Shown: positions 16,001 to 61,461 of the stretch, one piece after another
Position numbering within the stretch: the stretch's first letter is position 1
Layout of the letters: the number at the start of each line of letters is the position of its first letter
Origin: a virus
Taxonomy: Duplodnaviria > Caudoviricetes
DNA length: 61,461 bases
Strand: one strand, 5' to 3'
Virus record (IMG/VR): IMGVR_UViG_3300025759_000099
Span: 1 to 61,461 of that record
Position numbers and translations under genes: made by a program
The notes under the pieces: generated by a model
What the model saw: only the letters and a program-made list of their open reading frames with translations
What the model was told of the DNA's origin: nothing
Database searches by the model: none

Positions 16001-18800
16001 TAATCCTCGCTAATTTAGCTTGTAGTTCAGGATTACTAAATACTTCAGCGACGAACTCATCCAGACTAGTTGCACCATACGCTGTGTCGAGTCTACCTCG
16101 TACAGATTCAAACAAGTTACGCATTTGTATGGCGGCGGGTGTGTTTCTAGCTATTTCATGTGAGGTTACCGCATGTAAAGTTTCGTGTAGGAAAGTGTGA
16201 GTAGTAAGTTCTACATCTGGGTTAAGTACTATTTCGTTTGTACGGGGTCTAAATACACCCGCTATAGGCTCACCCTTCCTGTTTACTATCCCACCTTCAA
16301 ATCTGACACTAGTAGTGCCTATACCTTTAAGTACTGCACGCACCACACGGGCTACGTCTTTATCGGCTCCTACTAATAGGCGCTCCAAAGCCCTCTGCAA
16401 ACTACCGTTGTTTAACGCCGCAGATACTTCGGGACTTACTGGTACACCTACTTCAACCATTGCGTCTATAGGGAGAGGTAAACCCTGAAGTTCCCTATGT
16501 TTGGCTATTGCCCAACCTAAACGCCTATTGGACACAGGACTTAAGTTTTCTTGTACCCAACGGTATGCGGTTTCGTTTGCTTTCGTAAGACCTTCTGCGT
16601 TTATTTTTTTACCCAATTGCATAATTGCTTTAAAGGGGGACTTATCCTTAAAGAAATTAATGTACATAGGGTCGCGTTTCTTAAGCCGGTTTATTTTTTT
16701 AATGTCGCCCGCTATATTTGTAGATTTTACTGTTGTTGGGCGTGGAGGTATACGCGTACGGGGGCCACCTTTAGGCCCAATAAGTTCACCTTGTTCTGTA
16801 AGTAGTTCTTCGGCTTCTTGTTGGTCGGGTGTAGGTTGTTGCTGTGCCTGTTCTGTGGCTGCAATGCGTTCTTCCACACCCCTTAGTTCTTGTATGGTCG
16901 GGTCAGCCGTGGGTATAGCCGATATTCCTAGTTGTTGCTCTCCCGGTATTACCCGCCCGCGTTCATCTGTACGTTGCTGTACTTGTTGTGCTTGTTGCAT
17001 AGCTAAAGCTGTAGCTGTAGGTTGCGCGGCTAACTCTTGTTCACTACGCGCTAAAACTTCCTGCCCAGCTATTTGATCTTCCCTAGCGGCTTCAGCTTCT
17101 TCAAAAGCGGCTGTTCTAGCAGCTTCAGCGTCTATTTCCTGTTGCGCACGTTCTTGCTGTATCTGGTCAAAAGCGGCTGTACGGGCGGCTTCAGCTTCTT
17201 GTTCTTGCGTAGCTAAAACATCCGCGTCGATTTGCTGTTCTATATCAATCTGACCCGGCGATGTTTCTGTGGCTGGTACTCGTCCTTCCCCCGCTTCAAT
17301 TGCTTTTAGTAAAGGATTAGTATTTAGTAACCTAGCAACTGCCTCTCGGTTTGCTTTACTGGCATTTTTATTTTGTGTAAACGAAGTAAGGTCAGAAATA
17401 ACAGATTCCCGTACTTTTGGGTCGGATAAGTCTTTACCGATTGCTCTTGTTACAGCGGGGATTCTCAAACTAACGCCCGCATTTTGCATATCTTCTTTAC
17501 TTAGTATGGGAGTGCGAGTATCTGGGAACATCTCCCGTTGTCCAGCCGGTAGGCTTTCGATAGCGCCCTCAGCTTCAACAGCTTGCCTACGTTCAGCTAC
17601 AGCTTTCTCTCTTTCTTCTATAGCCCGCTGTCTAGCTTCAGCTTCTTGACCCGGCAGTATAAGTTCACCTTCAGGTGTTCCTACTATCCTTGGCTCCGCG
17701 ACTACAGGTAAGTCCCTAGGGCTAATCGGTTTTTGCCCCCTACGCGTATCAAATAAATCATATTGGGATAAATCAGATACAGGCCCAGTTTCTTCATCTA
17801 GTGGTGCGGGGGCGCGTGTGTCAACCGGGCCTTGGAATTCTCTTTCAGCTTCTACTTGCTCTGCTGGAAATAAATCCATTTGCCCAGCTTGTTCTTTTTC
17901 TATATCTTGTATGCGAGCTAAGTCTCTCTGAGCACTCGCATTAGCCCGAGGGCGTCCCGGTATAGCCAATTCTGCCAATGCCGCAAGTAGACCACCCACC
18001 CCTGCGCCATAACCCAGTGACTCTCCAGTTCCGGCAAAAGTACCGGTTTCAGGATCATATACACCTTGAGATATAAGATTTTGGGCTACTTCTGTACTTG
18101 CTTCTTGTAGTCCTTCACCACCTGCCGCTTGTGCTACCCTACGTAACCGCATTAAAGTAGTCTGAGCTACTTCTTCACCTAATACATCTTTTAATCCTTT
18201 GGCAACACGCATAGCCTTTACGGTTTTACCAATAGCAAACGGTACTAATGTCTCGCCCAGCCCCGGCAGTATACCTAGACCAGCGGCTTGACTTATTTGA
18301 TCTTCTGTAGCGCCAGCGGCTTCAGCACGTTTAGCGGCTTCGCCCGCACCAGCGGCACCACCTACAGCAACACCAGCGGCAAGTCCTGCCAAACCGAAGG
18401 GGGCAGTAGCTAAAAACGGTGCAGTTGAGCCAAGGGCTTCCGAACCTTTACGCGTTATTGTGTCTTCATACCCAGCACGCGGAGCTAAATCAGCTTGTAC
18501 ACCGGCACCAATTTCAGCTATTTTTTCACGCGCTTGTTGTTCTAGTTCTTCGGGGAGAAGAAAAGCCGCACCAGTAGCGGCAGATTCTAGGAGTCCGGCG
18601 GCACCAGAAGCTAAACCTCTAGGGATTTCAGCTAAGGCTCCACCAATAGTAGTTTCGGGGGGTTTGGTTGGGTCTTCTCCACGGGCTTGTTTTTTAAGCG
18701 CAGCGCTACCGTATATAGGTAGTTGGTCTTCCTTTACACCTACAGGTACATAAAAGTCAATATACCCTCCGTCTGTAAGGTTACCCCGTACGATAGGCAT
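13011..18800 (-). CDS. Large internal virion/ejection protein (polyvalent-protein-like) with zincin-like HExxH domain
   Basis: 1929 aa, last late gene; Gly/Ala-rich hydrophobic N-terminus; AGVF...IVL...FLHETLHAVT...DEFVAE. Confidence 0.7.
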   Translation of the reverse strand: MPIVRGNLTDGGYIDFYVPVGVKEDQLPIYGSAALKKQARGEDPTKPPETTIGGALAEIPRGLASGAAGLLESAATGAAFLLPEELEQQAREKIAEIGAGVQADLAPRAGYEDTITRKGSEALGSTAPFLATAPFGLAGLAAGVAVGGAAGAGEAAKRAEAAGATEDQISQAAGLGILPGLGETLVPFAIGKTVKAMRVAKGLKDVLGEEVAQTTLMRLRRVAQAAGGEGLQEASTEVAQNLISQGVYDPETGTFAGTGESLGYGAGVGGLLAALAELAIPGRPRANASAQRDLARIQDIEKEQAGQMDLFPAEQVEAEREFQGPVDTRAPAPLDEETGPVSDLSQYDLFDTRRGQKPISPRDLPVVAEPRIVGTPEGELILPGQEAEARQRAIEEREKAVAERRQAVEAEGAIESLPAGQREMFPDTRTPILSKEDMQNAGVSLRIPAVTRAIGKDLSDPKVRESVISDLTSFTQNKNASKANREAVARLLNTNPLLKAIEAGEGRVPATETSPGQIDIEQQIDADVLATQEQEAEAARTAAFDQIQQERAQQEIDAEAARTAAFEEAEAAREDQIAGQEVLARSEQELAAQPTATALAMQQAQQVQQRTDERGRVIPGEQQLGISAIPTADPTIQELRGVEERIAATEQAQQQPTPDQQEAEELLTEQGELIGPKGGPRTRIPPRPTTVKSTNIAGDIKKINRLKKRDPMYINFFKDKSPFKAIMQLGKKINAEGLTKANETAYRWVQENLSPVSNRRLGWAIAKHRELQGLPLPIDAMVEVGVPVSPEVSAALNNGSLQRALERLLVGADKDVARVVRAVLKGIGTTSVRFEGGIVNRKGEPIAGVFRPRTNEIVLNPDVELTTHTFLHETLHAVTSHEIARNTPAAIQMRNLFESVRGRLDTAYGATSLDEFVAEVFSNPELQAKLARINEKGEKIGLLQKFNNIISNIIARFRGVPTKKVESARNAVDKLLDSLISPAPEYRDAADLYSATLTEMSDTVLNSLGRFSRGTVSETDIATVSGFLRGAGRAIRRFAYSFLPLNAIVNVSKLDFPGISKDAGILFKLIQEKNGARSAEMSKVKDTAREISDLFKGKSEQLRKVFNFVVAESTLLKVDPTKPRSDYAADPVKQNEWDVLNAKIRELSPSEQQAFKKAYTDLRDSYRKVYDDLIETLETRLNNIEMEEGARRTIKDKLLQQLTKDSIEPYFPLYRKGTHWLTYRSVDPRTGNKEFYKELFESEAQRSKARAMLPEDATNISTFERNKNGGITNFGAVDAQWAYGIFQDLQAAGVDQNAQDIVLQALLDAMPERSALNAFRKRKNVLGFQLDALKVFRERMPNFVQQKVNLQYDLPFSQISADIKKSADEYISTDKQNHANDLAQLLQEYITFARNPQLATWSRALKSAGFGMTLGLNVSSVVVNATNLPIVVLPYLGGKFGFRKSAKAMEDARKIYMSTGMRRTRKDFLDREGGTEVDGPNLSNLDFNNPDSLPKGAEDLGPLMELLEIRGQSNASTIADALDYDNPSNGWWTKTNAIMGYMFHQGERANRQITAIASYKLELDAMAKKKKVPVSELTEQDRDMAAELALETTELTNSGAMTETGPRIAQSNWGSWLMMYKRFGISILYLQAKMGRQVLKGVKDKGERAEAVRQISGLFAMSGLFAGVQGLPLYGIISMIADTVFLDDEDENFDSIAASFFGEGFYSGALNSIFGVDVAPRIGMTNLVYRTLPNREQDSMILQAMETVGGPVFGIVSRMEDGASLIGEGEILRGLEKMLPSAISNGMRGARFGIEGATTLRGDPVVEDLNAWNVLAQTLGFAPASYMQMIEMNAKDKRIDREISESKRKLLRQFHLARRVGDTDEMRELVKEFQGFNKRHPEVAITPETFIRSMNSHSLTDEIARQFSGITINRRRIPTVLRQRLEDIT

Positions 18801-29413: not shown

Positions 29414-31789
29414 CTATCGTGCGTTTGCGTATTTAAATGGGTTCTCTGCGAATGCCATGTAGATGTATGTTTGTCCTGACCTGTTCAAAGAATCTCCAGT
29501 CTGCCTTAATTTAAATCCATTTGATAAATAATCTATCCATGTATAAGGACTAAATTCAGCATTAGAAGAATCTGCTGCTAGATATGTGTCTACCACGTTA
29601 TATTCATTCGGGTCAGCAGACATTAGCCAAAAAGTACCTGCATAAGTTGATGATTTAACCAGCACAAAAGCAGGACGCATACCTGTGAAAATCATGGGGC
29701 CGTCACTGGAGCCATTCCCGGTGTAGCTTCCGCATTTGCACATACCGTCCAAGTTTTTCCAAAGATACAAGACCCATTTATCACCTGAACCTCCATAGTA
29801 GGAAGCATAGCTAATATCTGTACTGTTCCAGTTAGTAATACCAGAACCAGAATTTAAAAACGCTCCGCTAGTATTTAAAGAGCCGTAGGCAGGGTTTGTA
29901 TAGTTTGATGTTACCGGAGACATAAAGTACCAACTATCCGCAGCGTCCCTTCTTTTGACTACTCCCATATCTGGTGTGCCGTTTAGGTTATGAGATATAG
30001 TCCCAGCACCCCCAGTACCTGTCCATGTAACTATGTCAAAAAATTCTGAGTTTTCTTTCCAGTTCCATGCTACATAGTCTTCAGCATTAGTATTTACTTG
30101 TACGTTGTTGCCCACAGAAAAACCATTGGAGTTAAAGCTAGATAGTGATTGCGCATCTGTTGCTTCAGCGTTGGTTGAGTTGGATGACAGGTACTTAGTC
30201 GCTCCACGAACAGCATCAAACAGCATATGTCTGTCAGCGGCATCCCTGTTCTTAATCCATGTGAAGTCAGGCTGGAACTCTAAAGTGCTGATGCTCTGGC
30301 TTGTGCCATTGCCTGTATAAAGGATTGGTTCAAATACTTCATCAGGCTTAGTGTCTGAGTTCGGCCCGATAGTGGGTTCTGGGAGGTTGGCTGCTTTTAG
30401 TTCTAAAAAGTCTGTAGGCGCTGAACCAACGAACGCATATTGACCAAAATTAACTCCAAACTTGCTCCATCTACCAGAGTCGTTTGTCTGAGTCAAAGCA
30501 ATGGGGAAATAAGTCTGACTTGCAGATAAGGCTGTAAGTGTTTTCCACGGGTTTGTCCCGTTTGCAGGGTCGCCAGAAGCAAGCCATGTATTATCTCTTT
30601 CTGACCAAAGCCACATTTTGCGGGTGTCAGCATCGTAGGCAATACCAAACCAATCGCCATCTACGACAGCGTTACTTAGAGTTATGTTATCTGCTGGAGT
30701 ATAAGCACCATCTTCGTAAGCGTAGGTTGTTGTACTGCCGGGTATAGTTGCAATGACTGCGCCAGTTGAATATCCTGAGTCTCCTATTCCGTCATTGTCT
30801 GATACACCTATACCAAAAGCCGTGCTTGGAGGGTCGGTAGCCCTTGCATCAATAAACTGAACTTCCCAATACCACTTCCCAGTTGTTGGCAAACCAAAAG
30901 TAGCGCGAGTGTGTTTAAAAGCCCCGCTATCTTGTTGAGCCTCTAAATTACCGTTGGAATATGTTGTAGCAGAAATAGAAAAAGCGGCTTGCAGGGTTGG
31001 GTAATTGTTGGTGGGAGTATCTGTCATCTGGTCAGAACTTGTCAGCCCTGAAGAAGTGAAGTCGTTGTTGTTACCTGAAACATCATTGCCAAGGTCGGCT
31101 GAGTTGGAGAAGTCTAAGTAGAAGCCGTTGGTTCCGAATGTGAGTCCTGATATGTTCTTTGGAACCCAGACACCGTTCTTGTCCTCACCGAATGATGTAG
31201 GGTCTAGTGCTGTGCCGTCCACATGAGATACTTGTGAGTAATAGCCATCCCAAAATAAAATTGGAGTCCCGCTAGCATTAACACTGCAATTTATGTAGTG
31301 TCCAACCGCAGTATTCCAAATCATGTTAGCGTTTTGTGCGGGGTATGAGGATGTTGAGAAACTTGTTATTTGCACCCCATTTACATATATCTTACACCTA
31401 TCAGACGATGTTGCTTGTGTTGTATCCATAGCAACAACAATGTGATACCAAGAAGATACATCTCTGTGGAGTGCATTACTTACTAAATTTAGCGCATCTG
31501 AGTTTTGTGAGTCGTTTACTTGCAACGCACCGTTTGTGTTGTACTTGATGGAAAAAAAAGCCCCGCCAGAACTGTTTCGTGCGGCAAGCATAAAGTCAAC
31601 TGGAGTGGGACTGGCAACCTTCATCCAATAAGAAATTGTAAATGTTTTGGAGTTTCCCGCAGATGGCGTTCTACTAAGATAAGCAGAATCATCGTCATTA
31701 AAGCGCGCAGAATTATCCACCGTGTACGGGTAGAAGCTACCACCGCCAACACCAGCACTTGCCTGTATTAAGTTCTTAGAACTAGTCAT
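29414..31789 (-). CDS. Receptor-binding/tail fibre protein B (LamG/ConA plus SPRY-like and C-terminal domains), 791 aa
   Basis: Likely start MTSSKNLIQAS overlapping the upstream stop; WYHIVVA, GKWYWE, YTGNG, PDFTWIKNR. Confidence 0.8.
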   Translation of the reverse strand: MTSSKNLIQASAGVGGGSFYPYTVDNSARFNDDDSAYLSRTPSAGNSKTFTISYWMKVASPTPVDFMLAARNSSGGAFFSIKYNTNGALQVNDSQNSDALNLVSNALHRDVSSWYHIVVAMDTTQATSSDRCKIYVNGVQITSFSTSSYPAQNANMIWNTAVGHYINCSVNASGTPILFWDGYYSQVSHVDGTALDPTSFGEDKNGVWVPKNISGLTFGTNGFYLDFSNSADLGNDVSGNNNDFTSSGLTSSDQMTDTPTNNYPTLQAAFSISATTYSNGNLEAQQDSGAFKHTRATFGLPTTGKWYWEVQFIDARATDPPSTAFGIGVSDNDGIGDSGYSTGAVIATIPGSTTTYAYEDGAYTPADNITLSNAVVDGDWFGIAYDADTRKMWLWSERDNTWLASGDPANGTNPWKTLTALSASQTYFPIALTQTNDSGRWSKFGVNFGQYAFVGSAPTDFLELKAANLPEPTIGPNSDTKPDEVFEPILYTGNGTSQSISTLEFQPDFTWIKNRDAADRHMLFDAVRGATKYLSSNSTNAEATDAQSLSSFNSNGFSVGNNVQVNTNAEDYVAWNWKENSEFFDIVTWTGTGGAGTISHNLNGTPDMGVVKRRDAADSWYFMSPVTSNYTNPAYGSLNTSGAFLNSGSGITNWNSTDISYASYYGGSGDKWVLYLWKNLDGMCKCGSYTGNGSSDGPMIFTGMRPAFVLVKSSTYAGTFWLMSADPNEYNVVDTYLAADSSNAEFSPYTWIDYLSNGFKLRQTGDSLNRSGQTYIYMAFAENPFKYANAR

Positions 31790-32169
31790 TACGCCATTGC
31801 CTGTCCAGCAGTAAAGCCGTACCAAGTAGTACCGCCATCGTGCGTGATGAAAACAAAGTAGTCTGTTGCGCCACTGGCTGACAGTGTAGGAGCAGTAGCA
31901 GCAGGCCAATCAACTGAAGTAGGCCATGTGATAGCGTTACCGTCATTGACAACCTTCAGGGTAAAAGATGAAGATTTACCACTGGCTGCTGGGTTACTAA
32001 AAGTATAGGTGACTGCACCCGCCATAGCTGTAGAGAAGTTAGTGCCAGTGTCTAAGTCAATAGTGACTGCACCACTAGTACCTGTCGCGTTATATTCTTC
32101 AATAACGCCAGAGTCAAAGGTTGTTACTTTTGTGAATAGGCTATCAGCCAAGTCTCTTGCTAAACTCAT
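31789..32169 (-). CDS. Tail fibre adaptor protein (paralog of the C-terminal domain of 34498-35163)
   Basis: MSLARDLAD N-peptide; WPTSVDWP..TAPTL...DGGTTWYGF. Confidence 0.7.
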   Translation of the reverse strand: MSLARDLADSLFTKVTTFDSGVIEEYNATGTSGAVTIDLDTGTNFSTAMAGAVTYTFSNPAASGKSSSFTLKVVNDGNAITWPTSVDWPAATAPTLSASGATDYFVFITHDGGTTWYGFTAGQAMA

Positions 32170-32175: not shown

Positions 32176-34497
32176 TTACCTTGCGTTACTGTATTTAGAG
32201 GATGTGCCAATTGATAGGGTTATGTAGTCACCGCCAGATGCGTTGGTAGTAGAACCTGTACCCCGCAACTTCACACCATTTGATAGTGCATCTTTTATAC
32301 CACCTGATGTAGTGTTTTCAACATTTGGCGAATCAAGGAACAGTTGTTTATCCATTGGGTTGTATGGGCTACGCTTTGTATCGTAAATATTCCAACTAGC
32401 AGCTGCGTCAGTCCTTTTATTTATGTGTAAGATAGGACTAAAACCCAAATACTGAAACGCCCCGTCAGCACTTCCATTCCCTTCGTAATATCCAATCTTG
32501 CAGAAATTGGGAACATTGGCGAATAAATAAACAATCGAATTAACACCGTTTAAATTAGTGACGTTAGTCCCTACGGAAAAAACGGAGGATGTTGGCGCGG
32601 TATCGTTCCACATGGTGCTGTCGTCTATTATAGCAAGAGTGCCATTCAAAATTTGATTGTCCGTTTCTGGGTCTGGTACAGGCCATGCTTCACAATAAAC
32701 AGGCCAGTTACTTCCTGTGCCTCGGTCGTATGCTTTATTAATTATAAAAGCTGGGACTACTCCCAAATCATGCGCTACTGTTTTTGCGACTCCTGTGCCT
32801 AAATTATTTTGTATGTCAAAAAACCCCGCTGTGATTTTGAAACAATAAGCAACATAATTTTCCGTATTGGTATTGACTGCGTTTTGGTTGCCAAGGGTAA
32901 ATCCATCTGCGTCAAAACTCGTAAGACTTTCTGTACTCGTTGCTTCATCAGCAGTGGAATTCAAACTCAGATACTTAGTAGCACCACGAACCGAATCAAA
33001 GACCATCCAAGAGTCAGCGGCATCCCTGTTCTTAATCCACACCATATCAGGCTGAAAGCCGACACCTGTGATTACTTTACCGCCAGAACCAATCGCTGTG
33101 CCGTTGCCTGTGTAGAGTACAGTGGCGAAACAGTCTTCTGGTTTAATGTCTGAGTTAGGCCCGATAGTGGGTTCTGGTAAGTTGGCTGTGGATAGGGCTA
33201 AGTGGTCTGTTGGGGGTGTATGAACAAAAGCTGTTTGACCAAAATTCCATCTACCTGCTGCGCTACTATTACCAGTATAAATGCTAGTACCAAAAATATA
33301 ACCAGCAGAAGGTAAATCTATATTACTTAAAGTGTCTATTAACGTGCCATCATCATATACTTTTATTGTTCTGGGGGATGAATCTAAATCTAAAGCAAGC
33401 CCGATTACACTTCCTGTTGATATTGATGTTGTATTAGATTGTAAGAGAGTTTGGTTTCTATACCAGCCTAAGCCGGGGTAAAAACCATATCCACCCCCAT
33501 TAGTGCTTCCGATATAATTAACGTTAGATGGGTTTGTTGCTATGGCTGCATCCGCTTCAACTATTCCAAAACCGGGATAAGTACCATTCTTAGTAATTGT
33601 GCATTCTGCATACCACTTCCCGCTAGTTACAGATAATGTGCTAACAGCACTATCATAAGTTCCACTAATATAGGTATGGTATAAGTTTCCGTCAGAGATA
33701 GAGGTAGTAAGCAGAGCGTTCAGCGTAGCAAAGTTGTTACTGGGAGTATCAGTGACTTGGTCAGAACTTGTCAGCCCTGAAGATGTGAAATTGTTTGCGT
33801 TGCCTGATACGTCTGTGCCGAGTGCGGCAGAGTTGCCAAAGTCTAGCAAGAATCCGTTATTTCCCCATGTGATGCCTGATAAATCTGATGGGCAAAGTAC
33901 ACCGTTTTTAAATTCGGTGAAATCATCGTAATCAAGGTATTGACCATCAACAAAAGCTACCTGTGATAGATAATAGTCACCGTAGTTATTGGGATATGAG
34001 GCAGTAAGTCTCCCAATGTTTTGCTCTGTTGAAGCCACGTTCATATAGTTTGTGAACGCAGAAGGCGTATGCGTATCCAGAGACACGCCATTGACTATTA
34101 TTTCTGATGCTGTAGTTCCGTTTTTCCTTACTAGAAGGTGTAACCACCCGGAAGGGTCGCGGTGTGATACGTTTGCATTGCCTAGTAAATCCCTTTGTAT
34201 TCCAGAGGTTGTTTTATCCCAATAAAAAGTAGATGTGCTTCCTGTAAACGTCACCCTTTCATAGTTACTTACATTCGGGCCTGACGCCAAAATTTCTGCG
34301 GAATCGCTGGGGCTTACTAGTTTTATCCATGTACTGAACGTCCATACTCCGGCACTTGTTGGTGTCGCCTGTGTTCTGGTTAGATACGGACTGTCACCAT
34401 CATTAAACCGGCAGGAGTAATCCACCGTGTACGGGTAGAAGCTACCACCGCCAACGCCAGAGGCTGCTTGCTGCATTAGTTTGGTAAAGTTACTCAT
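32176..34497 (-). CDS. Receptor-binding/tail fibre protein A (paralog of 29414-31789)
   Basis: Same architecture; shared GVGGGSFYPYTVD, NLPEPTIGPNSD, WIKNRDAAD. Confidence 0.8.
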   Translation of the reverse strand: MSNFTKLMQQAASGVGGGSFYPYTVDYSCRFNDGDSPYLTRTQATPTSAGVWTFSTWIKLVSPSDSAEILASGPNVSNYERVTFTGSTSTFYWDKTTSGIQRDLLGNANVSHRDPSGWLHLLVRKNGTTASEIIVNGVSLDTHTPSAFTNYMNVASTEQNIGRLTASYPNNYGDYYLSQVAFVDGQYLDYDDFTEFKNGVLCPSDLSGITWGNNGFLLDFGNSAALGTDVSGNANNFTSSGLTSSDQVTDTPSNNFATLNALLTTSISDGNLYHTYISGTYDSAVSTLSVTSGKWYAECTITKNGTYPGFGIVEADAAIATNPSNVNYIGSTNGGGYGFYPGLGWYRNQTLLQSNTTSISTGSVIGLALDLDSSPRTIKVYDDGTLIDTLSNIDLPSAGYIFGTSIYTGNSSAAGRWNFGQTAFVHTPPTDHLALSTANLPEPTIGPNSDIKPEDCFATVLYTGNGTAIGSGGKVITGVGFQPDMVWIKNRDAADSWMVFDSVRGATKYLSLNSTADEATSTESLTSFDADGFTLGNQNAVNTNTENYVAYCFKITAGFFDIQNNLGTGVAKTVAHDLGVVPAFIINKAYDRGTGSNWPVYCEAWPVPDPETDNQILNGTLAIIDDSTMWNDTAPTSSVFSVGTNVTNLNGVNSIVYLFANVPNFCKIGYYEGNGSADGAFQYLGFSPILHINKRTDAAASWNIYDTKRSPYNPMDKQLFLDSPNVENTTSGGIKDALSNGVKLRGTGSTTNASGGDYITLSIGTSSKYSNAR

Positions 34498-51914: not shown

Positions 51915-51944
51915 AAAATTTTTTTGTTTTACCTTTTTTCTTTA

Positions 51945-52114
51945 GGGGTGGGGGGTTTCCTATATAGAGGGGGGTGGGTAAGTCGTTGATTTAATTATAA
52001 AAAATAGGGGGTGGGGGGTCGAAAACTTTGAAAACCGAAATTATTCGTGTGAAATAGTATTACATACTAGCGTGTAGCCTCGCAGAGTTTTTGGGGGGTG
52101 GGGGGTAGGTGGGG
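51945..52114 (+). repeat. Four G(4-6)-T-G(3-6) tracts
   Basis: 51945-55, 51969-78, 52007-18 and 52093-114. Confidence 0.85.
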
Positions 52115-52169
52115 TCAGCATAGTCATAAAACACAATAAAAGACCCCTATACTGAAAGAAAATAAACAA

Positions 52170-52197
52170 TTGACAATTAAACTCAATTTGCTATTAT
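52170..52197 (+). promoter_or_regulatory. Strong early sigma70 promoter TTGACA-16-(TGn)TATTAT
   Basis: Perfect -35, extended -10, A-rich upstream element. Confidence 0.75.
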
Positions 52198-52281
52198 GTT
52201 CACAAGTCAGGCAATCCTGACCCGCTGTTATAACACGTTATAACAGGTAACTTTAAACTTAACTTAATAGGAAATTAAATC

Positions 52282-52908
52282 ATGAAACTATCTATATCTA
52301 CTTTTGATCTAACTGTAAAAAGCGCAGCCGCTGATGCTACTGCTGACAATCGACGCTCTGCTATGATCGACGCCTACATCGCCGATGGCATCACCAGTAA
52401 GATGTTACTGGCCGATACAAAAAAAGCGCCGAATGATGGTTATGATGCGGAATTGACTGAAAGCATTAATCTGGCTTTTGTTACCGGCTGGGGTAAGAAT
52501 GAGCTGGTACTGTATAAAGCGGATCATGCCAGCCTGACCCCTGTTATGAGGGAAAGACGTAATGAGCTGACCAGACGTTTGGGTTCATATCGCGGGGCAT
52601 TACGGCGCGATCTGGATAACAGGGCGGCAAAGGCAAAGGAAGAAAAGGAAGAAAAGGAATTTTTGGAAAAGATAAATGGATACAAAACAGAGGCCGCGAA
52701 AAAGAGAGCGATTAATCTGCGCGAAACCCAAAAAACTGAGGCAAAAAAGGCACGTACTACTAAACCAGCCCAATCTGCCGAGGCCGAGGTTATCGAATAC
52801 CTGACAGCAACTTACAATGTTCTGAAGAAAAAGGATTTCGCTATCATCTTCAATCGCGAAGATGTGCTAGAACAAGTAAATGAGTTGCTGGCAATATTCG
52901 AAGCATAA
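52282..52908 (+). CDS. First early protein, hypothetical
   Basis: 208-aa ORF after the strong promoter; AGGA RBS; charged helical middle. Confidence 0.8.
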   Translation: MKLSISTFDLTVKSAAADATADNRRSAMIDAYIADGITSKMLLADTKKAPNDGYDAELTESINLAFVTGWGKNELVLYKADHASLTPVMRERRNELTRRLGSYRGALRRDLDNRAAKAKEEKEEKEFLEKINGYKTEAAKKRAINLRETQKTEAKKARTTKPAQSAEAEVIEYLTATYNVLKKKDFAIIFNREDVLEQVNELLAIFEA

Positions 52909-53191
52909 TCCATTAACCTTAAACCCCGTTCGAAAGAGCGGGGTTTTTTAATACAGGAAAAAACAATATGTCATTTAATACTGAAAGCCCCGTATGTAAT
53001 GGAAACGTATGTCCCAAAAAGAAAGAGTGCAATCGTTACATAGGATTCGAAATCGCGCAGGGATTGAACGTTGAACGTTATTGGACTCTTAACCCTACGT
53101 TACAGGAACGGTGTCAGGTAATACCTTGTAAGCATTTCGTTCCCGCATAATCCATTAACCTTAAACCCCGTTCGAGAGAGCGGGGTTTTTT
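52903..53191 (+). repeat. 47-bp direct repeats (52903-52949, 53145-53191), each containing an intrinsic terminator
   Basis: 46/47 identical; AAACCCCGTTC-GARA-GAGCGGGGTTT plus T tract. Confidence 0.95.
52968..53150 (+). CDS. Small Cys-rich protein
   Basis: C....CPKKKECNRY...C.....C.HF; CAGGA RBS. Confidence 0.7.
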   Translation: MSFNTESPVCNGNVCPKKKECNRYIGFEIAQGLNVERYWTLNPTLQERCQVIPCKHFVPA

Positions 53192-53326
53192 TTCGCCTGT
53201 AATAAATACAATCCCTCCCTGTACCTGCATCAAATCCGGCTTTGCCCTGCTCTGTTCCCTCCCTGTTATAACACGTTATAACAAGTCACTTGATCTCCCT
53301 CTGTTCACTAAGGTTCAACTTCGTTC

Positions 53327-53567
53327 GATACCAGTACCCTAGGGGCGCATCGCCTTAGTGGTTTTTATGATGGGTACGGGATGTAGGATTGACGCTGTTA
53401 TAACATGTTATAACGACCCTGATACCAGTACCTTAGGGGCGCATCGCCTACGCTGTTGCATAGTATTCAAGTCCGAGCATAACTAGGCAGGACGTGTTTG
53501 GCTAAATCCTCTTTGTTATAACATGTTATAACGACCCTGATACCAGTACCAGAGGGGCGCATCGCCT
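53327..53567 (+). repeat. Three-copy 29-bp repeat GATACCAGTACCNNAGGGGCGCATCGCCT separated by unique sequence
   Basis: 53327-55, 53421-49 and 53539-67; copies 2 and 3 extend to a 54-bp repeat. Confidence 0.95.
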
Positions 53568-53600
53568 GTGGCACATAACAAAGCTGAACAATACTCAATC

Positions 53601-53974
53601 AAACCCAAATGTTCCGCATGTTCCTTGATGTTCCGTTTTGTTTTTTTAGCACGGAACATTTGAGTTTGGTTAGGTTTGGTTGTGTTTGATATAGGTTTGG
53701 TGGGGTTTGGTTGTGTTATAAAACTTAATAATAATAAATAATAATATAATATAATGTAATGTACCAAATGTTCTGTTTTTTTCTTACTTTTTTCAAATCT
53801 GTAAAAACTTCTACTTTTTTTGGTTTAGCTAAACCTCCGCCTCCCCCCTCCTCTTTTACAGAAACCTCCAAAAATAACGGAACATTTGGAACATGTGGAA
53901 CATCCCTTTAGAATCAACAACTTAGCCAAAAACCCAAAATGGAACATGAAGGAACATGCGGAACATTTGAGTTT
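53601..53974. other. Candidate replication origin: 40-bp inverted repeats, GGAACAT iterons, AT-only core
   Basis: 53601-40 versus 53935-74, 37/40 complementary; 10 GGAACAT copies; A/T-only 53725-53755. Confidence 0.55.
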
Positions 53975-54016
53975 AATATAGTTTATTTTATTTTTATGTT
54001 TTTTTGTTTATTTTAG

Positions 54017-54045
54017 TTGACCTAAGCTCTCGGTTTTGAGACTAT
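54017..54045 (+). promoter_or_regulatory. Possible promoter TTGACC-17-GACTAT
   Basis: Good -35, weak -10; upstream of the triple GTTATAAC box and the early ORFs. Confidence 0.35.
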
Positions 54046-54135
54046 GTAAGCTCACTTAGAGAAACAAGTTTTACCAACCCCAACCAACCCGTTATAACAC
54101 GTTATAACACGTTATAACAAACAGAGGAGCAAAAC

Positions 54136-54357
54136 ATGAATGGCGAAACAACAAAGCTACGGCATGAGCTAATCCACATACAGGACGCACATGCACAAGC
54201 AATATACGAGTTGAAAGAAAGAATGAGCGAGGCACTTGAGTGTGTACGGCTTGCAAAGATAGCACTTAATCGTGACCCAGATACACACAGCAAGCACGAC
54301 ATAATCCAGTATCAATTAGAGTACGCAATCGAAGAACTGAAAGGAGGACAACCATGA
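54136..54357 (+). CDS. Hypothetical early protein
   Basis: GAGGAG RBS. Confidence 0.75.
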   Translation: MNGETTKLRHELIHIQDAHAQAIYELKERMSEALECVRLAKIALNRDPDTHSKHDIIQYQLEYAIEELKGGQP

Positions 54358-54653
54358 GAAAGATAGAAAAACAAATGATTCAAGCAATACGCGAAAAACG
54401 CGATTGGAAATCTAGCAACACCAAAGTGGTACAAGTACGTAGTAACGGCATTAACTACGCCTACATTTACCTGCACGATAACCACATTGCTACTGCTACA
54501 CCTGACACATGGGACAGAGCACCATTCGCCAACCCAAACAGAGATACATTCAGGTACTGGCCTACTGCTACAACGCGTAGCCGGTTACGTGCGCTGGGCG
54601 TAAACGCAAGTATTAAAAACCACTGTGCCGTACTGGACGGCATGACATTGTGA
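54354..54653 (+). CDS. Conserved phage hypothetical protein
   Basis: MRKIEKQMIQAI...NTKV...YLHDNHIA...TTRSRLRAL. Confidence 0.8.
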   Translation: MRKIEKQMIQAIREKRDWKSSNTKVVQVRSNGINYAYIYLHDNHIATATPDTWDRAPFANPNRDTFRYWPTATTRSRLRALGVNASIKNHCAVLDGMTL

Positions 54654-54701
54654 ATAACTTACAACCCGTTATAACACGTTATAACAGAGAGGAGCCAAAC
54701 C

Positions 54702-54893
54702 ATGAAAGCAATACGATATAACCCAACACATACTTATACCGAAGAACAGGCATGTTCTATCGCTGACCGATTAACAGCGGCAGAACAGCAATTCAGCAAG
54801 GGCGAACGGTTTACTTTTGTGCCTTACTGCGCGGGAGAGGATTGCTACAAGGTGGCAGTATATGACGCAGGCAAATTTGTCGTGTATTTTTAA
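54702..54893 (+). CDS. Hypothetical early protein
   Basis: GAGGAG RBS. Confidence 0.7.
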   Translation: MKAIRYNPTHTYTEEQACSIADRLTAAEQQFSKGERFTFVPYCAGEDCYKVAVYDAGKFVVYF

Positions 54894-54913
54894 AACTAAC
54901 AGAGGAGCAAAAC

Positions 54914-55123
54914 ATGATAAACGACTTTTACAACCTTTCAGACAGGCGTATATACGCAGTCGCATGGTTTTTTGGTAAACGTGTGAGGGAAATGCACGTA
55001 CACAATGTTGGCGCTGTCACCGCGCATTTTGAGGATGGTACAAAAAACGACTTAACTGGTAATGAGTACAACAAAGTCCTTACCAAATACTACAAACACA
55101 AAATGGCGGGAGACAAACCATGA
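54914..55123 (+). CDS. Hypothetical early protein
   Basis: GAGGAG RBS. Confidence 0.7.
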   Translation: MINDFYNLSDRRIYAVAWFFGKRVREMHVHNVGAVTAHFEDGTKNDLTGNEYNKVLTKYYKHKMAGDKP

Positions 55124-55329
55124 AAATAACCAAGTACAAGATTGACTACAACTCAATGCCATACGGCGCACTGGCAAAAATCCCGAAAGGCACACCGGTT
55201 ATTCCGGCAGTCGGTCACCCACATCGTGGCTACTGGGTAGAGAACTGGAAGGGTATGACGAAAGCACAGCGAAGCTGGGCAGACAACTACGGCTACCATG
55301 CAACCGAATCTGAAGTGGAGGAAGCATAA
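55120..55329 (+). CDS. Hypothetical early protein
   Basis: GGAG RBS, ATGA overlap. Confidence 0.7.
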   Translation: MKITKYKIDYNSMPYGALAKIPKGTPVIPAVGHPHRGYWVENWKGMTKAQRSWADNYGYHATESEVEEA

Positions 55330-55331
55330 CC

Positions 55332-55580
55332 ATGAGTAAAGTTAAAGAGTACATGCTATCGGATACGCCTTGCATTTACTGCGACGAGTTATACGACGTA
55401 CGACGTGCAAGAGCATTCCCGTACTGCATTGAGTGTACAAAAAAGTACAAGCTGGACGAACCAGTACGGTATCCGATTCTTGAGATGCACAAGCAAGCCC
55501 CAATGGTGTGCCGACCAGAAAGCGCGACCGACATAGCCAAACAAATCAACCCAAAACGATCAGAGAGGTGGATAAGATGA
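55332..55580 (+). CDS. Zn-finger protein (DksA/TraR C4-like)
   Basis: CIYCD....RRARAFPYCIEC...MHKQ...INPK. Confidence 0.6.
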   Translation: MSKVKEYMLSDTPCIYCDELYDVRRARAFPYCIECTKKYKLDEPVRYPILEMHKQAPMVCRPESATDIAKQINPKRSERWIR

Positions 55581-56578: not shown

Positions 56579-57526
56579 ATGAACAACGCAATGCAAACAA
56601 ATGTTACGGAAACACATAACAAACCAACACCAACTGCGCCTACTGCGCCTGACATAAAACCACTGGGAGACTACGGTGTGATGCTGGAGGTACACGTATC
56701 ACTACCGGAGTTTAAGAAACAAGACAAGCGGGCAAGTAAGCAGGTGGCGCAGGATAACAACGCCAACGCCAAACAGGTGGGTGTAATCAAGACACTGCTG
56801 GACATGCCGGAACTCAAAACACTGAAAGGACTTAAAAGCGAGATATACGCGGTGCGCGGTGACTTTGGTACGCCGATGGGGGTGAATCAATACTTTATAC
56901 CCAACACTCGCATCATCGACTGTAAGAACGTGTTAGAGCAACTACTTAACGAATTTAACGGGACAGGCAAGCAATCCTTTATCAACGCGTATCCCGCTGG
57001 GGTGACCAGAGCGCAACTCAATGCTGAAGGGCTTGGCTACATGTTCGACGAATCACTGTACCCATCGGTAGATAGTCTGTACTCAAAAATCAATGCGAGT
57101 GCGTCGTGGAATCAACTACCGTCAACTGGGGTTATGTCTGAGATACACAAACAGGCGCAGGAGACCTTGAGAGAGGAGTTTGCACATAACGCGAACAAAG
57201 CCCAAGAGACCCTGATGAACGGGGTATGGGAGCGACTACGTACCCCCCTACTCAATATGTCTAAGCGGCTGGACTACGGGGACGATGGGAAACCAAAAGA
57301 CGGTGGCTTTAAAGGTACGCTGGTGAACAACGTGCTAGAGATTGTCGACCTGATGAAGCACTGCAATGTCGGAAACGACCCGCGTATGGAACAGGTACGC
57401 ATTGACCTGCGTAATGCACTGACTGGGGTAACCTACGACAGTCTCAAGAACAGCGACGGGATGCGACGCAAAACGAAAGCCGAGGTGGATAAGATCATAG
57501 ACAACTTGCCGTCACTGGGATGGTAA
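56579..57526 (+). CDS. DUF3150-like helical protein
   Basis: KKQDKRAS..VA...KTLL...F...YP...G.MFD...YP; typical neighbour of AAA/VWA genes. Confidence 0.55.
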   Translation: MNNAMQTNVTETHNKPTPTAPTAPDIKPLGDYGVMLEVHVSLPEFKKQDKRASKQVAQDNNANAKQVGVIKTLLDMPELKTLKGLKSEIYAVRGDFGTPMGVNQYFIPNTRIIDCKNVLEQLLNEFNGTGKQSFINAYPAGVTRAQLNAEGLGYMFDESLYPSVDSLYSKINASASWNQLPSTGVMSEIHKQAQETLREEFAHNANKAQETLMNGVWERLRTPLLNMSKRLDYGDDGKPKDGGFKGTLVNNVLEIVDLMKHCNVGNDPRMEQVRIDLRNALTGVTYDSLKNSDGMRRKTKAEVDKIIDNLPSLGW

Positions 57527-57535
57527 CAGAGCAAA

Positions 57536-57557
57536 TACCAAAAGCCGGCTTTTGGTA
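57536..57557. repeat. Perfect 22-bp palindrome TACCAAAAGCCGGCTTTTGGTA
   Basis: Self-reverse-complementary, intergenic. Confidence 0.9.
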
Positions 57558-57590
57558 ACGATTTCATGGAGCACAGGGACGTGCGTTACA

Positions 57591-57620
57591 TTGACTTAAA
57601 CAAACAAACTGCACTATAAT
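57591..57620 (+). promoter_or_regulatory. sigma70 promoter TTGACT-18-TATAAT upstream of the AAA/VWA genes
   Basis: Near-consensus hexamers. Confidence 0.65.
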
Positions 57621-57672
57621 ATGTATAACTTAATGAAACATCATATAACTAAATGTCTTAGGAGGACACGTT

Positions 57673-58758
57673 ATGACAACTGCAACATCAATGTATGCAC
57701 TTAACCACAATCAGATAGCACAACTAATCGCAACCGTAGGTAGGGACAACTGCGTGCTGGTGCAAGGTGAGACGGGTACAGGTAAAACGAGTATCCAGAA
57801 AATACTAGAGGTTAAATTCCCCAACCATATCTTGGTTTACTTTGATGGTACGACCAAGGATATGGGTGACCTGATGGTGCCGATGTTCCATACGATTGGT
57901 GACGATGGCGTGGTGCGCTACGCGACCAACGAGGAACTGGGACTGCACTTAGATAAACCCGTTATAGTAATGATAGACGAGTTTGGTAAATGTCTGCCAA
58001 CTGTTAAGAACGCATTGACCAGACTTATACTGGAACGTCAGATGGGTGCAAAAAAACTGCATGAGGAATCCTTGCTTTGGGCTACTACTAACTTACAAGC
58101 CGAGGGACTGGGTGACATGCTACCGGCACACGTACGTAATCGCATAACAACTGTGGAGATGCGTAAACCTGATGCTACCGAGTGGATAGAATGGGGTATC
58201 AATAACGACATTGACCCGATGATTTTAGCGTGGACTAAGGATACTCCCCAACTGTTCCACAGTTTCAAGGATTGTAAGCCGGAAGAAAATCCATACATTA
58301 ACCATCCACAGGCACAGCGTGCGTCGTTTGTATCCCCTCGTTCACTTGAGAAGGCGAGTAATATTCTCAAACAACGTGACCAGATAGACACGACTACACT
58401 GACCGCATCATTAATAGGTACGATAGGTGAACGTGGTGCACTAGACCTGATGGCATACGTAGCACTGGGTGACCAACTACCATCACTTGACTCTATCAAG
58501 AACGACCCGATGGGTGCCAAGGTTCCAACTGCCGCTGGTGCGGTGTGTATGGTGGTATATCGTTCACTTGCGACTATCGAGCGTAGCTGGATTAAACAGT
58601 GGATGACTTACCTAAACAGGTTGAACAAGGAAGCACAGGGCTTGTTTGTCAACGGTGCGCGTGCCAAGGGCTATAGCAAGCAGGATGTAGTAACACAGTC
58701 TAAGGAGTTTCAGGACTGGTGCTTGGCTAATAACTTTTTGTTTAGCGCAGATAAATAA
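57673..58758 (+). CDS. MoxR-like AAA+ ATPase
   Basis: GETGTGKT, VMIDEFGK, ATTN, RNR, SPRS. Confidence 0.85.
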   Translation: MTTATSMYALNHNQIAQLIATVGRDNCVLVQGETGTGKTSIQKILEVKFPNHILVYFDGTTKDMGDLMVPMFHTIGDDGVVRYATNEELGLHLDKPVIVMIDEFGKCLPTVKNALTRLILERQMGAKKLHEESLLWATTNLQAEGLGDMLPAHVRNRITTVEMRKPDATEWIEWGINNDIDPMILAWTKDTPQLFHSFKDCKPEENPYINHPQAQRASFVSPRSLEKASNILKQRDQIDTTTLTASLIGTIGERGALDLMAYVALGDQLPSLDSIKNDPMGAKVPTAAGAVCMVVYRSLATIERSWIKQWMTYLNRLNKEAQGLFVNGARAKGYSKQDVVTQSKEFQDWCLANNFLFSADK

Positions 58759-58779
58759 CAACTAACAGGAGTAGGAAAC

Positions 58780-59988
58780 ATGTTAGCAATAAATTTAGAC
58801 CTAACAGCCGAACAACGGCTACATAAATCTGTTGTGAGTATTATGTCCAACCCCCGCTACGTAGCGATGGCGGGACTGCTTATGATGGGTAAACGAACTA
58901 TCGACGAGACAACACCAACCGCGTGTACCAATGGACGCGATGAGGTGTACGGACGGGCGTTTGTAGATTCACTTACTGATGCCGAACTACGATTTGTGGT
59001 ACTGCATGAGTGTAAACATAAGATGTATCGCCATTTGATAACATGGAAACACTTGCATGACAAAGACCACAGGTGTGCAAATATGGCGTGTGACTACGTG
59101 ATTAACCTAGAGATTGAGGCTGAGAATCCAGATGGGTTTGCCACTATGCCACTAGATGAGAACGGTAAACGTATTGGGCTATTAGACCATAGGTTCCGAA
59201 ACATGAACTCGCAAGAGGTATTCAACATCATCTATGAGGAGCAGGAACAAGGAGGTGGTGCAGGTGAGGGTGAGGGTGAGGGTGAGACCCTAGACTCGCA
59301 TGACTGGGATGGAGCGCAGGAGATGTCTGACGGTGAGAAACGTCAACTGGAACAAGAGATAGACCAAGCAATACGCCAAGGTGCGTTGACCGCTGGCAAG
59401 ATGGGCGCGGATACACCACGGGGGTTTGAGCAACTACTACAACCACAGATAGATTGGCGTGAGGTGATGCGTGAGTTTGTTAGCACAACGTGTACAGGTA
59501 AGGACTATAGCACTTACAACCGACCCAACCGACGATTCATGTCTGCGGGAATGTACATGCCGAGTGCAGTGAGTGAACAGGTAGGTGAACTTGTAGTAGC
59601 TATCGATACAAGCGGTAGCATAGGCGATACCGAACTGGCTGTGTTCCTTAGCGAACTGAAATCTATCTGCGATACGGTGAACCCAAGCGGTGTACGACTA
59701 CTGTACTGGGGACATGAGGTAGTAGGTGATGAGAAGTATGGGGATATGGATACCCCGATAGACCAACTCGTTACGTCAACTAAACCCCAAGGTGGAGGTG
59801 GTACGGATGTGAACTGTGTATGCAACTACATACGCGAGGAGAACATCAATGCCGAAGCTGTTGTGGTGTTGACTGATGGGTATCTTGCAGGTGACTGGGG
59901 TACATGGACGCAACCCCTGTTGTGGTGCATATTGAATAATGCGAGCGCCAACCCTAGTGTTGGTAAATACGTTAACGTAACTTTATAG
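58780..59988 (+). CDS. Metallopeptidase-like (DUF2201) plus VWA domain protein
   Basis: TACTNG, LHECKH, NMACDYVIN, acidic linker, MIDAS DTSGS...GGGT...LTDG. Confidence 0.85.
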   Translation: MLAINLDLTAEQRLHKSVVSIMSNPRYVAMAGLLMMGKRTIDETTPTACTNGRDEVYGRAFVDSLTDAELRFVVLHECKHKMYRHLITWKHLHDKDHRCANMACDYVINLEIEAENPDGFATMPLDENGKRIGLLDHRFRNMNSQEVFNIIYEEQEQGGGAGEGEGEGETLDSHDWDGAQEMSDGEKRQLEQEIDQAIRQGALTAGKMGADTPRGFEQLLQPQIDWREVMREFVSTTCTGKDYSTYNRPNRRFMSAGMYMPSAVSEQVGELVVAIDTSGSIGDTELAVFLSELKSICDTVNPSGVRLLYWGHEVVGDEKYGDMDTPIDQLVTSTKPQGGGGTDVNCVCNYIREENINAEAVVVLTDGYLAGDWGTWTQPLLWCILNNASANPSVGKYVNVTL

Positions 59989-60970: not shown

Positions 60971-61214
60971 AGTGTACCGTGTGGAGTTTACAGGTAGACA
61001 AGCTAAGGTAGATAAGTTTGATACATTAGATACTACGCCGGAACTGGATGGTGAATACCACATCGACGACCTACCTGACTGGATGCAGAAACGCATAGCG
61101 GTATTATCGTTTATGTCATACGAGCCGCCTACTGAGTACATAGAGAATGTAGGTAGGCGGATAGAGAAAAATGTTTATTGGGTTCTTTACCCAGAGGAGA
61201 ATGATGGAAATTAA
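60957..61214 (+). CDS. Conserved hypothetical protein
   Basis: DDLPDWMQKRIAVL...VGRRI...YWV. Confidence 0.75.
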   Translation: MSLNRVYRVEFTGRQAKVDKFDTLDTTPELDGEYHIDDLPDWMQKRIAVLSFMSYEPPTEYIENVGRRIEKNVYWVLYPEENDGN

Positions 61215-61461
61215 CGGGTACGAGTATCAGATAATACCTAAGGCTGACTTGCGGAAGGCTGACTTGCGGAGGGCTGACTTGCAGGAGGCTGACTTGCGGA
61301 GGGCTGACTTGCAGGAGGCTGACTTGCGGAAGGCTGACTTGCGGAAGGCTGACTTGTGGGGGGCTTACTTGCGGAAGGCTAACTTGTATGGGGCTGACTT
61401 GCAGGAGGCTAACTTGCAGGGGGCTAACTTGCGGGGGGCTGACTTGCGGGGGGCTGACTTG
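61201..61461 (+). CDS. Pentapeptide-repeat protein, N-terminal part (runs off the contig end)
   Basis: AGGAG RBS; MMEINGYEYQIIPK then A[DNY]Lxx repeats, open to the end. Confidence 0.85.
   Translation, partial: MMEINGYEYQIIPKADLRKADLRRADLQEADLRRADLQEADLRKADLRKADLWGAYLRKANLYGADLQEANLQGANLRGADLRGADL
61243..61461 (+). repeat. 15-bp tandem repeat, ~14.6 units
   Basis: GCT-NAC-TTG-NNN-NNG. Confidence 0.95.

Follow-up and report, generated by a model that had tools for sequence, protein, structure and literature searches.

The virus record IMGVR_UViG_3300025759_000099 of IMG/VR (Duplodnaviria; Caudoviricetes) comprises 61,461 nucleotides (nt) of linear DNA with a CheckV completeness of 98%, and this whole record is the window analyzed here. 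Between its leftward late genes and its rightward early genes lie three copies of a 29-nt sequence, GATACCAGTACCNNAGGGGCGCATCGCCT, interspersed with a short palindromic box and with unique sequence, and the question raised by this locus is what such an array does in a phage genome. A preliminary description of the window had taken it for a Cas-less repeat/spacer array, namely a small-RNA or guide array, a decoy for a defence protein or a composite protein-binding array. Among these only the composite protein-binding array fits what is found in the relatives, and the repeat/spacer and guide array does not. To judge from the sequence comparison, the array belongs to the control and replication region as a conserved cis-acting element, and it is shared by a clade of uncultured aquatic podophages with genomes of about 60 kb. 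We tentatively read the repeated units as duplex-DNA recognition sites of a replication origin, that is, as accessory initiator or priming sites, and give this reading a chance clearly short of even.

The three copies start at 53327, 53421 and 53539, all lie on the plus strand and match the 29-mer exactly. No further match with up to three mismatches is found in the window, where 100 shuffles gave none by chance. Copies 2 and 3 form a 54-nt repeat (96% identical), and copy 1 is 69% identical. The gaps between the 29-mers measure 65 and 89 nt, or 40 and 64 nt when the 54-nt unit is counted, and hold unique sequence plus the recurring box. The box is paired; the distance from the end of a pair to the unit is 6 nt for units 2 and 3 and 44 nt for unit 1. 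The array follows directly on a terminator, and the open reading frames (ORFs) of at least 30 amino acids across it have 42 (plus strand), 43 and 83 (minus strand) codons for amino acids; on reading the sequence no ribosome-binding site was seen for them. In its positions, spacings and unique segments, and in placing the array behind a terminator without a credible ORF, the preliminary description was accurate. It had missed a further box pair at 52227, inverted GGAACAT clusters with an AT-rich core, and two copies of the 12-mer core of the unit, at 10433 on the plus strand and 3947 on the minus strand.

A search of IMG/VR with the terminase yielded 80 loci of 71–99% identity, and the array layout was read in relatives with a large terminase 72–86% identical. 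Twelve of the 80 loci extend at least 3 kb upstream of the terminase gene; a relaxed core GAnnCCAGTW is present in 11 of these 12 on the array strand, i.e., the strand opposite the terminase, and as a control in two of the 12 on the other strand. The single long locus without units, L054, also lacks a gene like ORF208, the gene upstream of the array in the window, and none of 15 queried early and middle proteins matched it. Otherwise the layout is constant. Behind an ORF208-like gene and a terminator come one to four units, in direct orientation on the early-gene strand; an AT-rich core between iterons and their inverted counterparts is next, and a sigma-70 promoter with a palindrome and a ribosome-binding site leads into the early genes. 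Four units are present in G006, three in the window, L016, L114, L153, L164 and G002, two in L024, L040, L041, L055, L168, L196, G003, L048, L078 and G005, and one in G004 and L077; one unit each was also found in L011, L035 and L039, and in L035 and L039 it lies near a contig end, so that more copies were possibly missed. The units are spaced by 45–120 bp. In most lineages the first unit begins at most 26 nt after the T run of the terminator, and a box stands 4–15 nt 5′ of most of the later units.

In an alignment of 36 units the first 10–12 nt are nearly unchanged across lineages. The unit consists of the clade-wide core GAnnCCAGTW, mostly GAWACCAGTWYC, and a lineage-specific tail of about 17 nt, which is kept within a genome and loose between genomes (roughly GCGnTGnGCC). 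In seven loci (L041, L048, L055, L077, L078, L168 and L196) the last tail runs directly into the first iteron, about 28–30 nt from the unit start. Iterons, boxes and neighbouring ORFs change from lineage to lineage and the core does not, so that its binding partner is probably slowly evolving. Strain variants from salt marsh and estuary differ in the array by 4 of 264, 1 of 151 and 1 of 259 nt (at most 1.5%) and in ORF208 by 9–10%. In L016, L039, L114, L164, L011 and L024 the terminator T run is followed by (G/A)TGCCT, then 3–28 nt and the core; conservation therefore begins before the core, since this string is common to the six relatives.

The exact 28-mer has no match in other IMG/VR records, the window's own record being possibly left out of that search, and a scan of IMG/VR for the two-copy pattern (at least 120 stretches, filtered by eye) gave as true arrays among the matches listed L114, L153, L164, L168 and L196; the other stretches which passed the first filter were coding repeats, mostly collagen-like. 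In bacterial genomes the same kind of pattern gave no array among at least 120 stretches listed, and all seven tail-similar loci were coding repeats. No related paper was among the listed matches of a literature text search with three 12-mer forms of the core. A blastn search of 52900–54200 against a phage collection gave no match. The nearest cultured phages, HTVC027P, HTVC023P, DSL-LC04 and Pag-Yong1, are 42–48% identical in the large terminase. DSL-LC04 and HTVC027P have another layout and no array, and contain the 10-mer core zero times and once, respectively, the backwards control also being found once. The array phages are distantly related to pelagiphages of the HTVC023P type and are widespread in metagenomes from freshwater, estuaries and salt marshes; among cultured phages, none close enough to have the array was found.

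The preliminary description had counted a terminal GGCG-CAT-CGCC hairpin as a feature of the repeat. This is not borne out by the relatives: with RNA energy parameters applied to 34-nt units, 36 units from 18 loci have a mean z of +0.18 and only 2 of the 36 fall below −1.5 relative to shuffles, and the hairpin itself occurs only in the window, L016 and G003. Because no fold is conserved, recognition of the duplex seems likelier than recognition of RNA or of a single-stranded DNA hairpin. Rfam gave no match at the gathering threshold in the whole window, none of relevance at E ≤ 1 in 52000–55500, and no tRNA match was obtained. The 36-unit alignment holds no conserved promoter hexamers and a promoter scan found no promoter-like site within the window units, and sigma-70 promoters were therefore rejected as an identity of the units. 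Compared by eye with consensus sequences, the units do not resemble a DnaA box or an IHF site, have AG where a sigma-54 promoter needs the invariant GG, show the wrong spacing for an ECF-type promoter, and share with the RfaH ops element only TAGCG-TG in some tails; the likeness to the 790 region of 16S rRNA is partial and in the same sense. A mini-ORF coding for I-P-V-P has, on reading the sequence, no upstream in-frame start codon. We also rejected N4-type hairpin promoters for a virion RNA polymerase (the hairpin is limited to the three loci named, and the largest protein of the window, with 1929 amino acids, has no polymerase match), lambdoid nut sites composed of boxA and boxB (the stem–loop is not conserved, and the units stand after and not before two terminators) and single-strand initiation (ssi) signals, which are defined by a conserved hairpin.

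An exact copy of the 12-mer core is found within a replication gene, in the linker between the primase and the DUF927 helicase parts of the primase-helicase (Table 1). The linker is poorly conserved, and the core in it is common to the window, G002, G003 and G004. In the ten lineages with Pro-Val at this site the Pro codon is always CCA, which accounts for only 14–33% of Pro codons, and the codon two positions before it always ends in G, whichever of L, A, V or P it encodes, at a third-position G frequency of only 17–29%; the codons flanking the core are scrambled. From these three observations we conclude that the linker core is constrained at the nucleotide level. In some lineages the site has other forms (GTCACCAGT, GACACCAGT, GATGCCAGT and GAAGCCAGT). 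A second exact core, within the 14-mer TGATACCAGTACCC when its flanks are included, lies antisense in the DNA polymerase gene; no such copy was found elsewhere in the records of G002, G003 and G004, in which the polymerase gene itself was not located.

Directly 3′ of the array follows a region which has the anatomy of an iteron-type origin, with clusters of short repeats flanking an AT-rich stretch. The heptamer GGAACAT occurs 19 times in the window against 6.83 expected, and 12 of these copies lie at 53609–53966. They form two inverted clusters, whose arms of 71 nt are 79% complementary, around GTTTGG repeats (53664–53717) and a core with a GC content of 21% (53700–53799); a C-rich element is located at about 53838–53852. 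The relatives show the same layout with other heptamers, and their iterons differ by lineage (GGAACAT, GGTTGCAA, GGTAACA, AATGTTCG and GGAACTT). A string of this C-rich element, CCTCCCCCCTCC, is the counterpart of G-rich 12-mers (GGGGGTGGGGGG and near copies) which cluster at 51944–52112, in the interval from the small-terminase gene to the first rightward promoter; one of them overlaps the spacer of a leftward sigma-70-like site (52022–51994). Strings similar to CCTCCCCCCTCC are found in the origin regions of L016 and G006, and the G-rich 12-mers and their counterpart may be late-promoter or origin elements. The putative early promoter behind the origin-like region of the window is weak; at the matching position L040 has TTGACA-17-TATAAT.

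The fixed place of the units beside the iterons and the AT-rich core, their fixed strand and their constant core suggest double-stranded sites at an origin, and the missing fold and the copy in a replication gene add to this. Each unit of about 30 bp would be read as double-stranded DNA through its slowly changing core of 10–12 bp and its lineage tail, one to four direct units being placed between the terminator of the first operon and the origin. An initiator bound to the iterons would open the origin, and a conserved replication factor would then dock or start synthesis at the units. The candidate for this factor is most likely the primase domain of the phage primase-helicase, otherwise a host initiation factor; the core in the primase-helicase linker would be in line with the frequent binding of initiators inside the gene that encodes them. 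The boxes of the array probably bind the same phage regulator as those at gene starts and could either couple the use of the origin to the early switch or keep read-through transcription out of it.

Several observations weigh against accessory origin sites. The origin is assigned from its anatomy and from a GC skew that is confounded with gene strand, and helical phasing was not seen in the unit spacing of 45–120 bp. The short distances from terminator to first unit and from box to later units would be at least as natural for a transcription start. The lineage with four units, G006, has no core in its primase gene, and in G004 the cores of the array and of the primase gene do not covary (GAGGCCAGTTCC versus GATACCAGTTCC). 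Finally, two relatives have a core in a middle-gene leader: L196 shows the succession terminator, box, core, Shine–Dalgarno sequence and ATG, and G002 at 7755 that of stop codon, core, Shine–Dalgarno sequence and ATG.

The box GTTATAAC is found 13 times in the window against 1.57 expected, always within 52227–54685 and arranged as five pairs and one triple with a spacing of 10 bp. In the relatives a palindrome recurs 3–10 times over several kb in the 11 loci where it was found, mostly 2–25 nt before a Shine–Dalgarno sequence and sometimes before a promoter or within a gene, and its sequence varies by lineage (GTTATAAC pairs, CTGACAnnnTGTCAG, TTCGGGCAnnTGCCCGAA, TGATGACACTTGTCATCA and others). 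Since it recurs mostly before Shine–Dalgarno sequences, the box is best regarded as a general marker of early and middle gene starts which is separate from the repeat and is borrowed by the array. It would be either an operator of a phage regulator with many sites or an RNA hairpin site. A central AT is present only in boxes 2 and 3 of the window, the other pairs having CG, and produces there an extended −10-like sequence, TGTTATAAC (TG-T-TATAAC), that is confined to the window; we take it as a hint to a start site which does not extend to the relatives. The preliminary description had further called the pyrimidine runs before two boxes nearly antisense to an early leader. The alignments exist (53507–53533 with 54667–54693, 27 nt at 93%, and 53258–53282 with 54668–54692, 25 nt at 88%), but 18 nt of the match are the palindromic box itself, and by eye no anti-Shine–Dalgarno runs were seen before the boxes of relatives.

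Rearrangements were also observed at these sequences. In salt-marsh and estuary contigs the first early genes (54119–55123) are skipped, replaced or re-ordered, with joints at or beside boxes or repeated leaders (54119 to 54898, 54691 to 54914, and 55098 back to 54667), and the boxes may be recombination points for the shuffling of gene cassettes.

What the array has in common with CRISPR arrays are identical direct repeats with unique segments between them. It differs in that the supposed spacers contain a palindrome and do not turn over, in that no cas gene among the ORFs scanned and no known repeat family was found, and in that the core is fixed in its genomic position across lineages. Three repeats with unequal gaps, each gap holding the recurring box, do not make a CRISPR array, and the Rfam searches, which include the CRISPR repeat families, gave no match. 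The spacer variation proposed as a check is not seen, the array being near-invariant between strain variants, and the segments are likewise without a match in the phage collection. No Cas family was detected among the ORFs scanned with Pfam or PHROGs, some small ORFs being unscanned and PADLOC not having been run. The supposed spacers are, as far as the comparison goes, ordinary DNA between sites, and a CRISPR-like reading is not supported.

The units could instead be cis elements acting at the level of transcription, which we consider possible though rather doubtful. They would then be either regulated starts, i.e., tandem weak promoters reading through the origin into the early or middle operon, or a conserved leader element that is recognized in the transcript or in the non-template strand, with the box as the regulator's site in both cases. 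The distances from terminator and box would suit a start, the TG-T-TATAAC of window boxes 2 and 3 ends at a distance of 6 nt from the first G of the unit, the middle-gene leaders of L196 and G002 carry the core, and in T7 tandem promoters stand upstream of early genes or of an AT-rich origin. However, no −35/−10 pair is conserved across lineages and the boxes of G003, G006, L016 and L153 lack a −10-like sequence. Scans with Pfam and PHROGs detected neither a phage RNA polymerase nor a sigma factor among the ORFs covered, and the 1929-amino-acid virion protein looks like a polyvalent protein of the LPD type and has no PDB sequence match. Moreover, good sigma-70 promoters already serve the early and middle genes, and the linker core is not followed by a consistent start codon. 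The units might also be recognition repeats (pac or cosB-like) of the terminase small subunit, marking the start of packaging; we regard this as unlikely. An asymmetric site that is directly repeated several times at about 1.5 kb from the small-terminase gene, where leftward late and rightward early genes diverge, would be in keeping with it, as would a small terminase that is 44–78% identical across lineages. Yet a complete operon lies between the units and the terminase genes, lineages that have units cannot be told from those that lack them by small-terminase identity (the small terminase of L054 is 60% identical and L054 has none), the contigs have no consistent ends at the units, the window itself ending in a pentapeptide-repeat gene, and the core in the primase gene and the adjacent boxes would be left unexplained.

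Still less probable is an array that makes small RNAs, unit-length or processed with a conserved 5′ handle, which would act as antisense regulators, guides or protein decoys. A variant to which we give the same small chance has unit RNAs of about 95–120 nt, starting or cut at the box hairpins, whose clade-wide 5′ handle GAUACCAGU acts in trans on the messages of replication genes or as a protein handle or decoy; if true, these would be a phage-borne, Cas-independent tandem array of small RNAs. Modules of box plus unit occupy the same kind of slot as modules of box plus gene, the handle is identical to the constrained site in the primase-helicase mRNA, the plus-strand core has 14 nt of complementarity to the DNA polymerase mRNA, and two boxes carry anti-Shine–Dalgarno runs complementary to early leaders; these runs and the polymerase match, however, were not seen in relatives. 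Contigs of an RNA library span 53145–53535, but the non-coding origin and structural genes are represented in this library about as deeply, so that carry-over of DNA is possible; the contigs break at the repeated boxes and are informative neither on transcription nor on RNA ends. The lack of a conserved structure in the 36 units, of an Rfam match and of a cas-like gene among the ORFs scanned, the constancy of the inter-unit segments between strains, and two strong terminators upstream with no conserved promoter also speak against small RNAs. That the core is the target of a site-specific single-strand nick or of another enzyme, such as the HNH or PD-(D/E)XK nucleases of the phage, we hold for very improbable: nuclease genes are present, a genome has about five core sites, some of them inside genes, and T5-like and phiKMV-like phages have conserved nick motifs of 10–20 nt, but the window has core sites on both strands, and the clustering of two to four sites beside an origin is untypical of nick sites. 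What probability remains we leave to readings not considered here.

Accessory origin sites, the reading we prefer, have counterparts in known systems. Iteron origins with accessory boxes are known from RK2 oriV, P1 oriR and pSC101, which carry host DnaA boxes, and iteron-flanked AT-rich origins from the SaPI islands and phage P4. As in these, lineage-specific clusters of short repeats flank an AT-rich core here and a few more-conserved sites lie on one side, and the window encodes a primase-helicase of the P4/SaPI kind with DUF927. Unlike them, the core resembles neither a DnaA box nor an IHF site, the units of about 30 bp have a lineage tail and an interleaved palindrome, and the role as origin is inferred. 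Initiator sites within the initiator's own gene are the lambda ori, located in the linker-coding part of gene O, and oriL of SPP1 in gene 38, with a second site elsewhere. Similarly, the window keeps a signal in the interdomain linker of a replication gene and at a distant non-coding site, whereas its gene holds only the core of about 10 nt without iterons or an AT-rich stretch, and the copy is absent in at least one array-bearing lineage. In the primary origin of T7 an AT-rich region comes after tandem promoters, and the early promoters A1–A3 are about 125 bp apart. The two to four tandem asymmetric sites of the array phages, 45–120 bp apart and just 5′ of an AT-rich region and early genes, are alike; in contrast to T7, no phage RNA polymerase gene was found here and the units have no conserved host-type promoter hexamers. 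Sequence-specific priming signals are represented by ssiA and ssiB of RSF1010, which are read by RepB′, by the ColE2 origin and by the start site of the NrS-1 primase-polymerase. They share with the units the strand-fixed asymmetric sites by an iteron origin and a genome with a gene for a primase of the archaeo-eukaryotic type fused to a helicase, whereas the hairpin defining the ssi signals is not conserved in the units, which show no excess folding energy. The box, for its part, may be compared with the stoperators and start-associated sequences of mycobacteriophages and the promoter/stem–loop cassettes that flank early genes of T4-type phages. In both cases one short sequence recurs before ribosome-binding sites, and strain rearrangements lie at or near it; here the boxes are palindromic, lineage-specific and also present inside the unit array, which sets them apart.

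The array conserved in this uncultured clade is read as a variant of an origin or control region of a known sort. The analysis provides a compact map of that region, with a core of 10–12 bp, lineage iterons, a gene-start palindrome and a primase-gene core held against synonymous drift. If the core is a start or docking signal of the primase-helicase, it would define an origin type for a large uncultured group and provide a sequence marker for such origins in metagenomes; if it is a promoter or leader element, it would point to an unrecognised way of redirecting the host polymerase.

Table 1. Features of the array, its surroundings and the distant core copies in the 61,461-nt window.
Feature	Position	Strand	Basis or remark
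Exact core, antisense in DNA polymerase gene	3947–3958	−	plus strand codes for R-V-L-V-S
Exact 12-mer core in primase-helicase gene (9822–12674)	10433–10444	+	codons L-I-P-V-P
Sigma-70-type promoter of first rightward operon	52170–52197	+	TTGACA, 16 nt, TG-n-TATTAT; 11/12 hexamer matches, TG before second hexamer
Box pair (GTTATAAC-AC-GTTATAAC), ORF208 leader	52227–52244		motif count
ORF208, predicted all-alpha protein	52282–52908	+	predicted model, pLDDT 81.7
ORF60, small Cys-rich ORF	52968–53150	+	ORF listing
Intrinsic terminator directly 5′ of array	53163–53196 (terminator-like site 53163–53188)	+	11 pairs, 6 of them G-C, then T run
Box pair 1, 5′ of unit 1	53265–53282		motif count
Unit 1, core GATACCAGTACC and tail	53327–53355	+	29-mer match, nhmmer profile hit
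Box pair 2, 5′ of unit 2	53397–53414		perfect 18-bp palindrome, central AT
Unit 2	53421–53449	+	29-mer match, nhmmer profile hit
Box pair 3, 5′ of unit 3	53515–53532		same central-AT form
Unit 3	53539–53567	+	29-mer match, nhmmer profile hit
Origin-like region	53580–53995		inverted GGAACAT clusters around GTTTGG repeats, AT-rich core, C-rich element
Putative sigma-70 early promoter	54017–54045	+	TTGACC, 17 nt, GACTAT; below scan threshold, better matches at same position in relatives
Three tandem boxes	54091–54118		directly before ribosome-binding site of first early gene (ATG 54136)
Box pair	54668–54685		before gene at 54702

In the genome as a whole the late genes run leftward from 51849 and comprise the small and large terminase, portal, capsid, tail-fibre-like proteins and the 1929-amino-acid virion protein. 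The early and replication genes point to the right and occupy the stretch from 54136 over the contig break up to 12674; Pfam and PHROG scans identified a family A DNA polymerase, an SNF2 helicase and the primase-helicase of 950 amino acids with DUF927. Between the two blocks follow rightward the G-rich 12-mers, the strong sigma-70-type promoter, the box pair, ORF208, ORF60 and the array, and 3′ of the array the two inverted GGAACAT clusters around the GTTTGG repeats and the stretch of 21% GC, the weak promoter, the three boxes and the first early gene. Promoter-like matches in this region are at chance level (7 versus 7.4 expected), and the call at 52170–52197 was made on match quality and position. 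ORF208 has no Pfam or PHROG match, no Foldseek match to PDB at E ≤ 0.001 and only two close homologues, and these searches gave no functional lead. In the array-bearing relatives a fast-evolving gene of similar size takes its position, and these position-matched ORFs are 11–20% identical to ORF208. ORF208 and ORF60 each end in the same module of 47 nt, which reaches from the stop codon through the terminator (52903–52949 and 53145–53191, 98% identical) and suggests a duplicated or mobile terminator cassette.

Both contig ends (1–321 and about 61000–61461) lie inside a pentapeptide-repeat gene with ADLRK-type repeats. The window ends are assembly breaks and not genome ends; the pentapeptide repeats probably broke the assembly, and the record is likely a closed genome cut at this gene.

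Some further observations concern other parts of the window. The 15-mer AAACTGCACTATAWT occurs twice, at 8094–8108 and 57606–57620, the latter copy within a TTGACT-17-TATAAT promoter before an AAA ATPase gene, and may be a shared form of middle promoter. The 1929-amino-acid protein of the virion module (13011–18800, minus strand) has no Pfam match; its C-terminal part matches PHROGs of giant proteins, one of them labelled DarB-like, and by language-model features the first 1100 residues are similar to polyvalent proteins with LPD domains. The protein has no sequence match in PDB. It is likely an injected multi-domain protein. Two adjacent paralogous genes on the minus strand (29414–31909 and 32176–34497) both contain DUF7483, one of them also a laminin-G-like domain, and are probably tail-fibre or receptor-binding variants. 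A trio of genes for a DUF3150 protein, an AAA_5 ATPase and a DUF2201 protein (metallopeptidase-like plus VWA-like) at 56579–59988 is kept after the early genes in 15–18 of the 21 loci searched.

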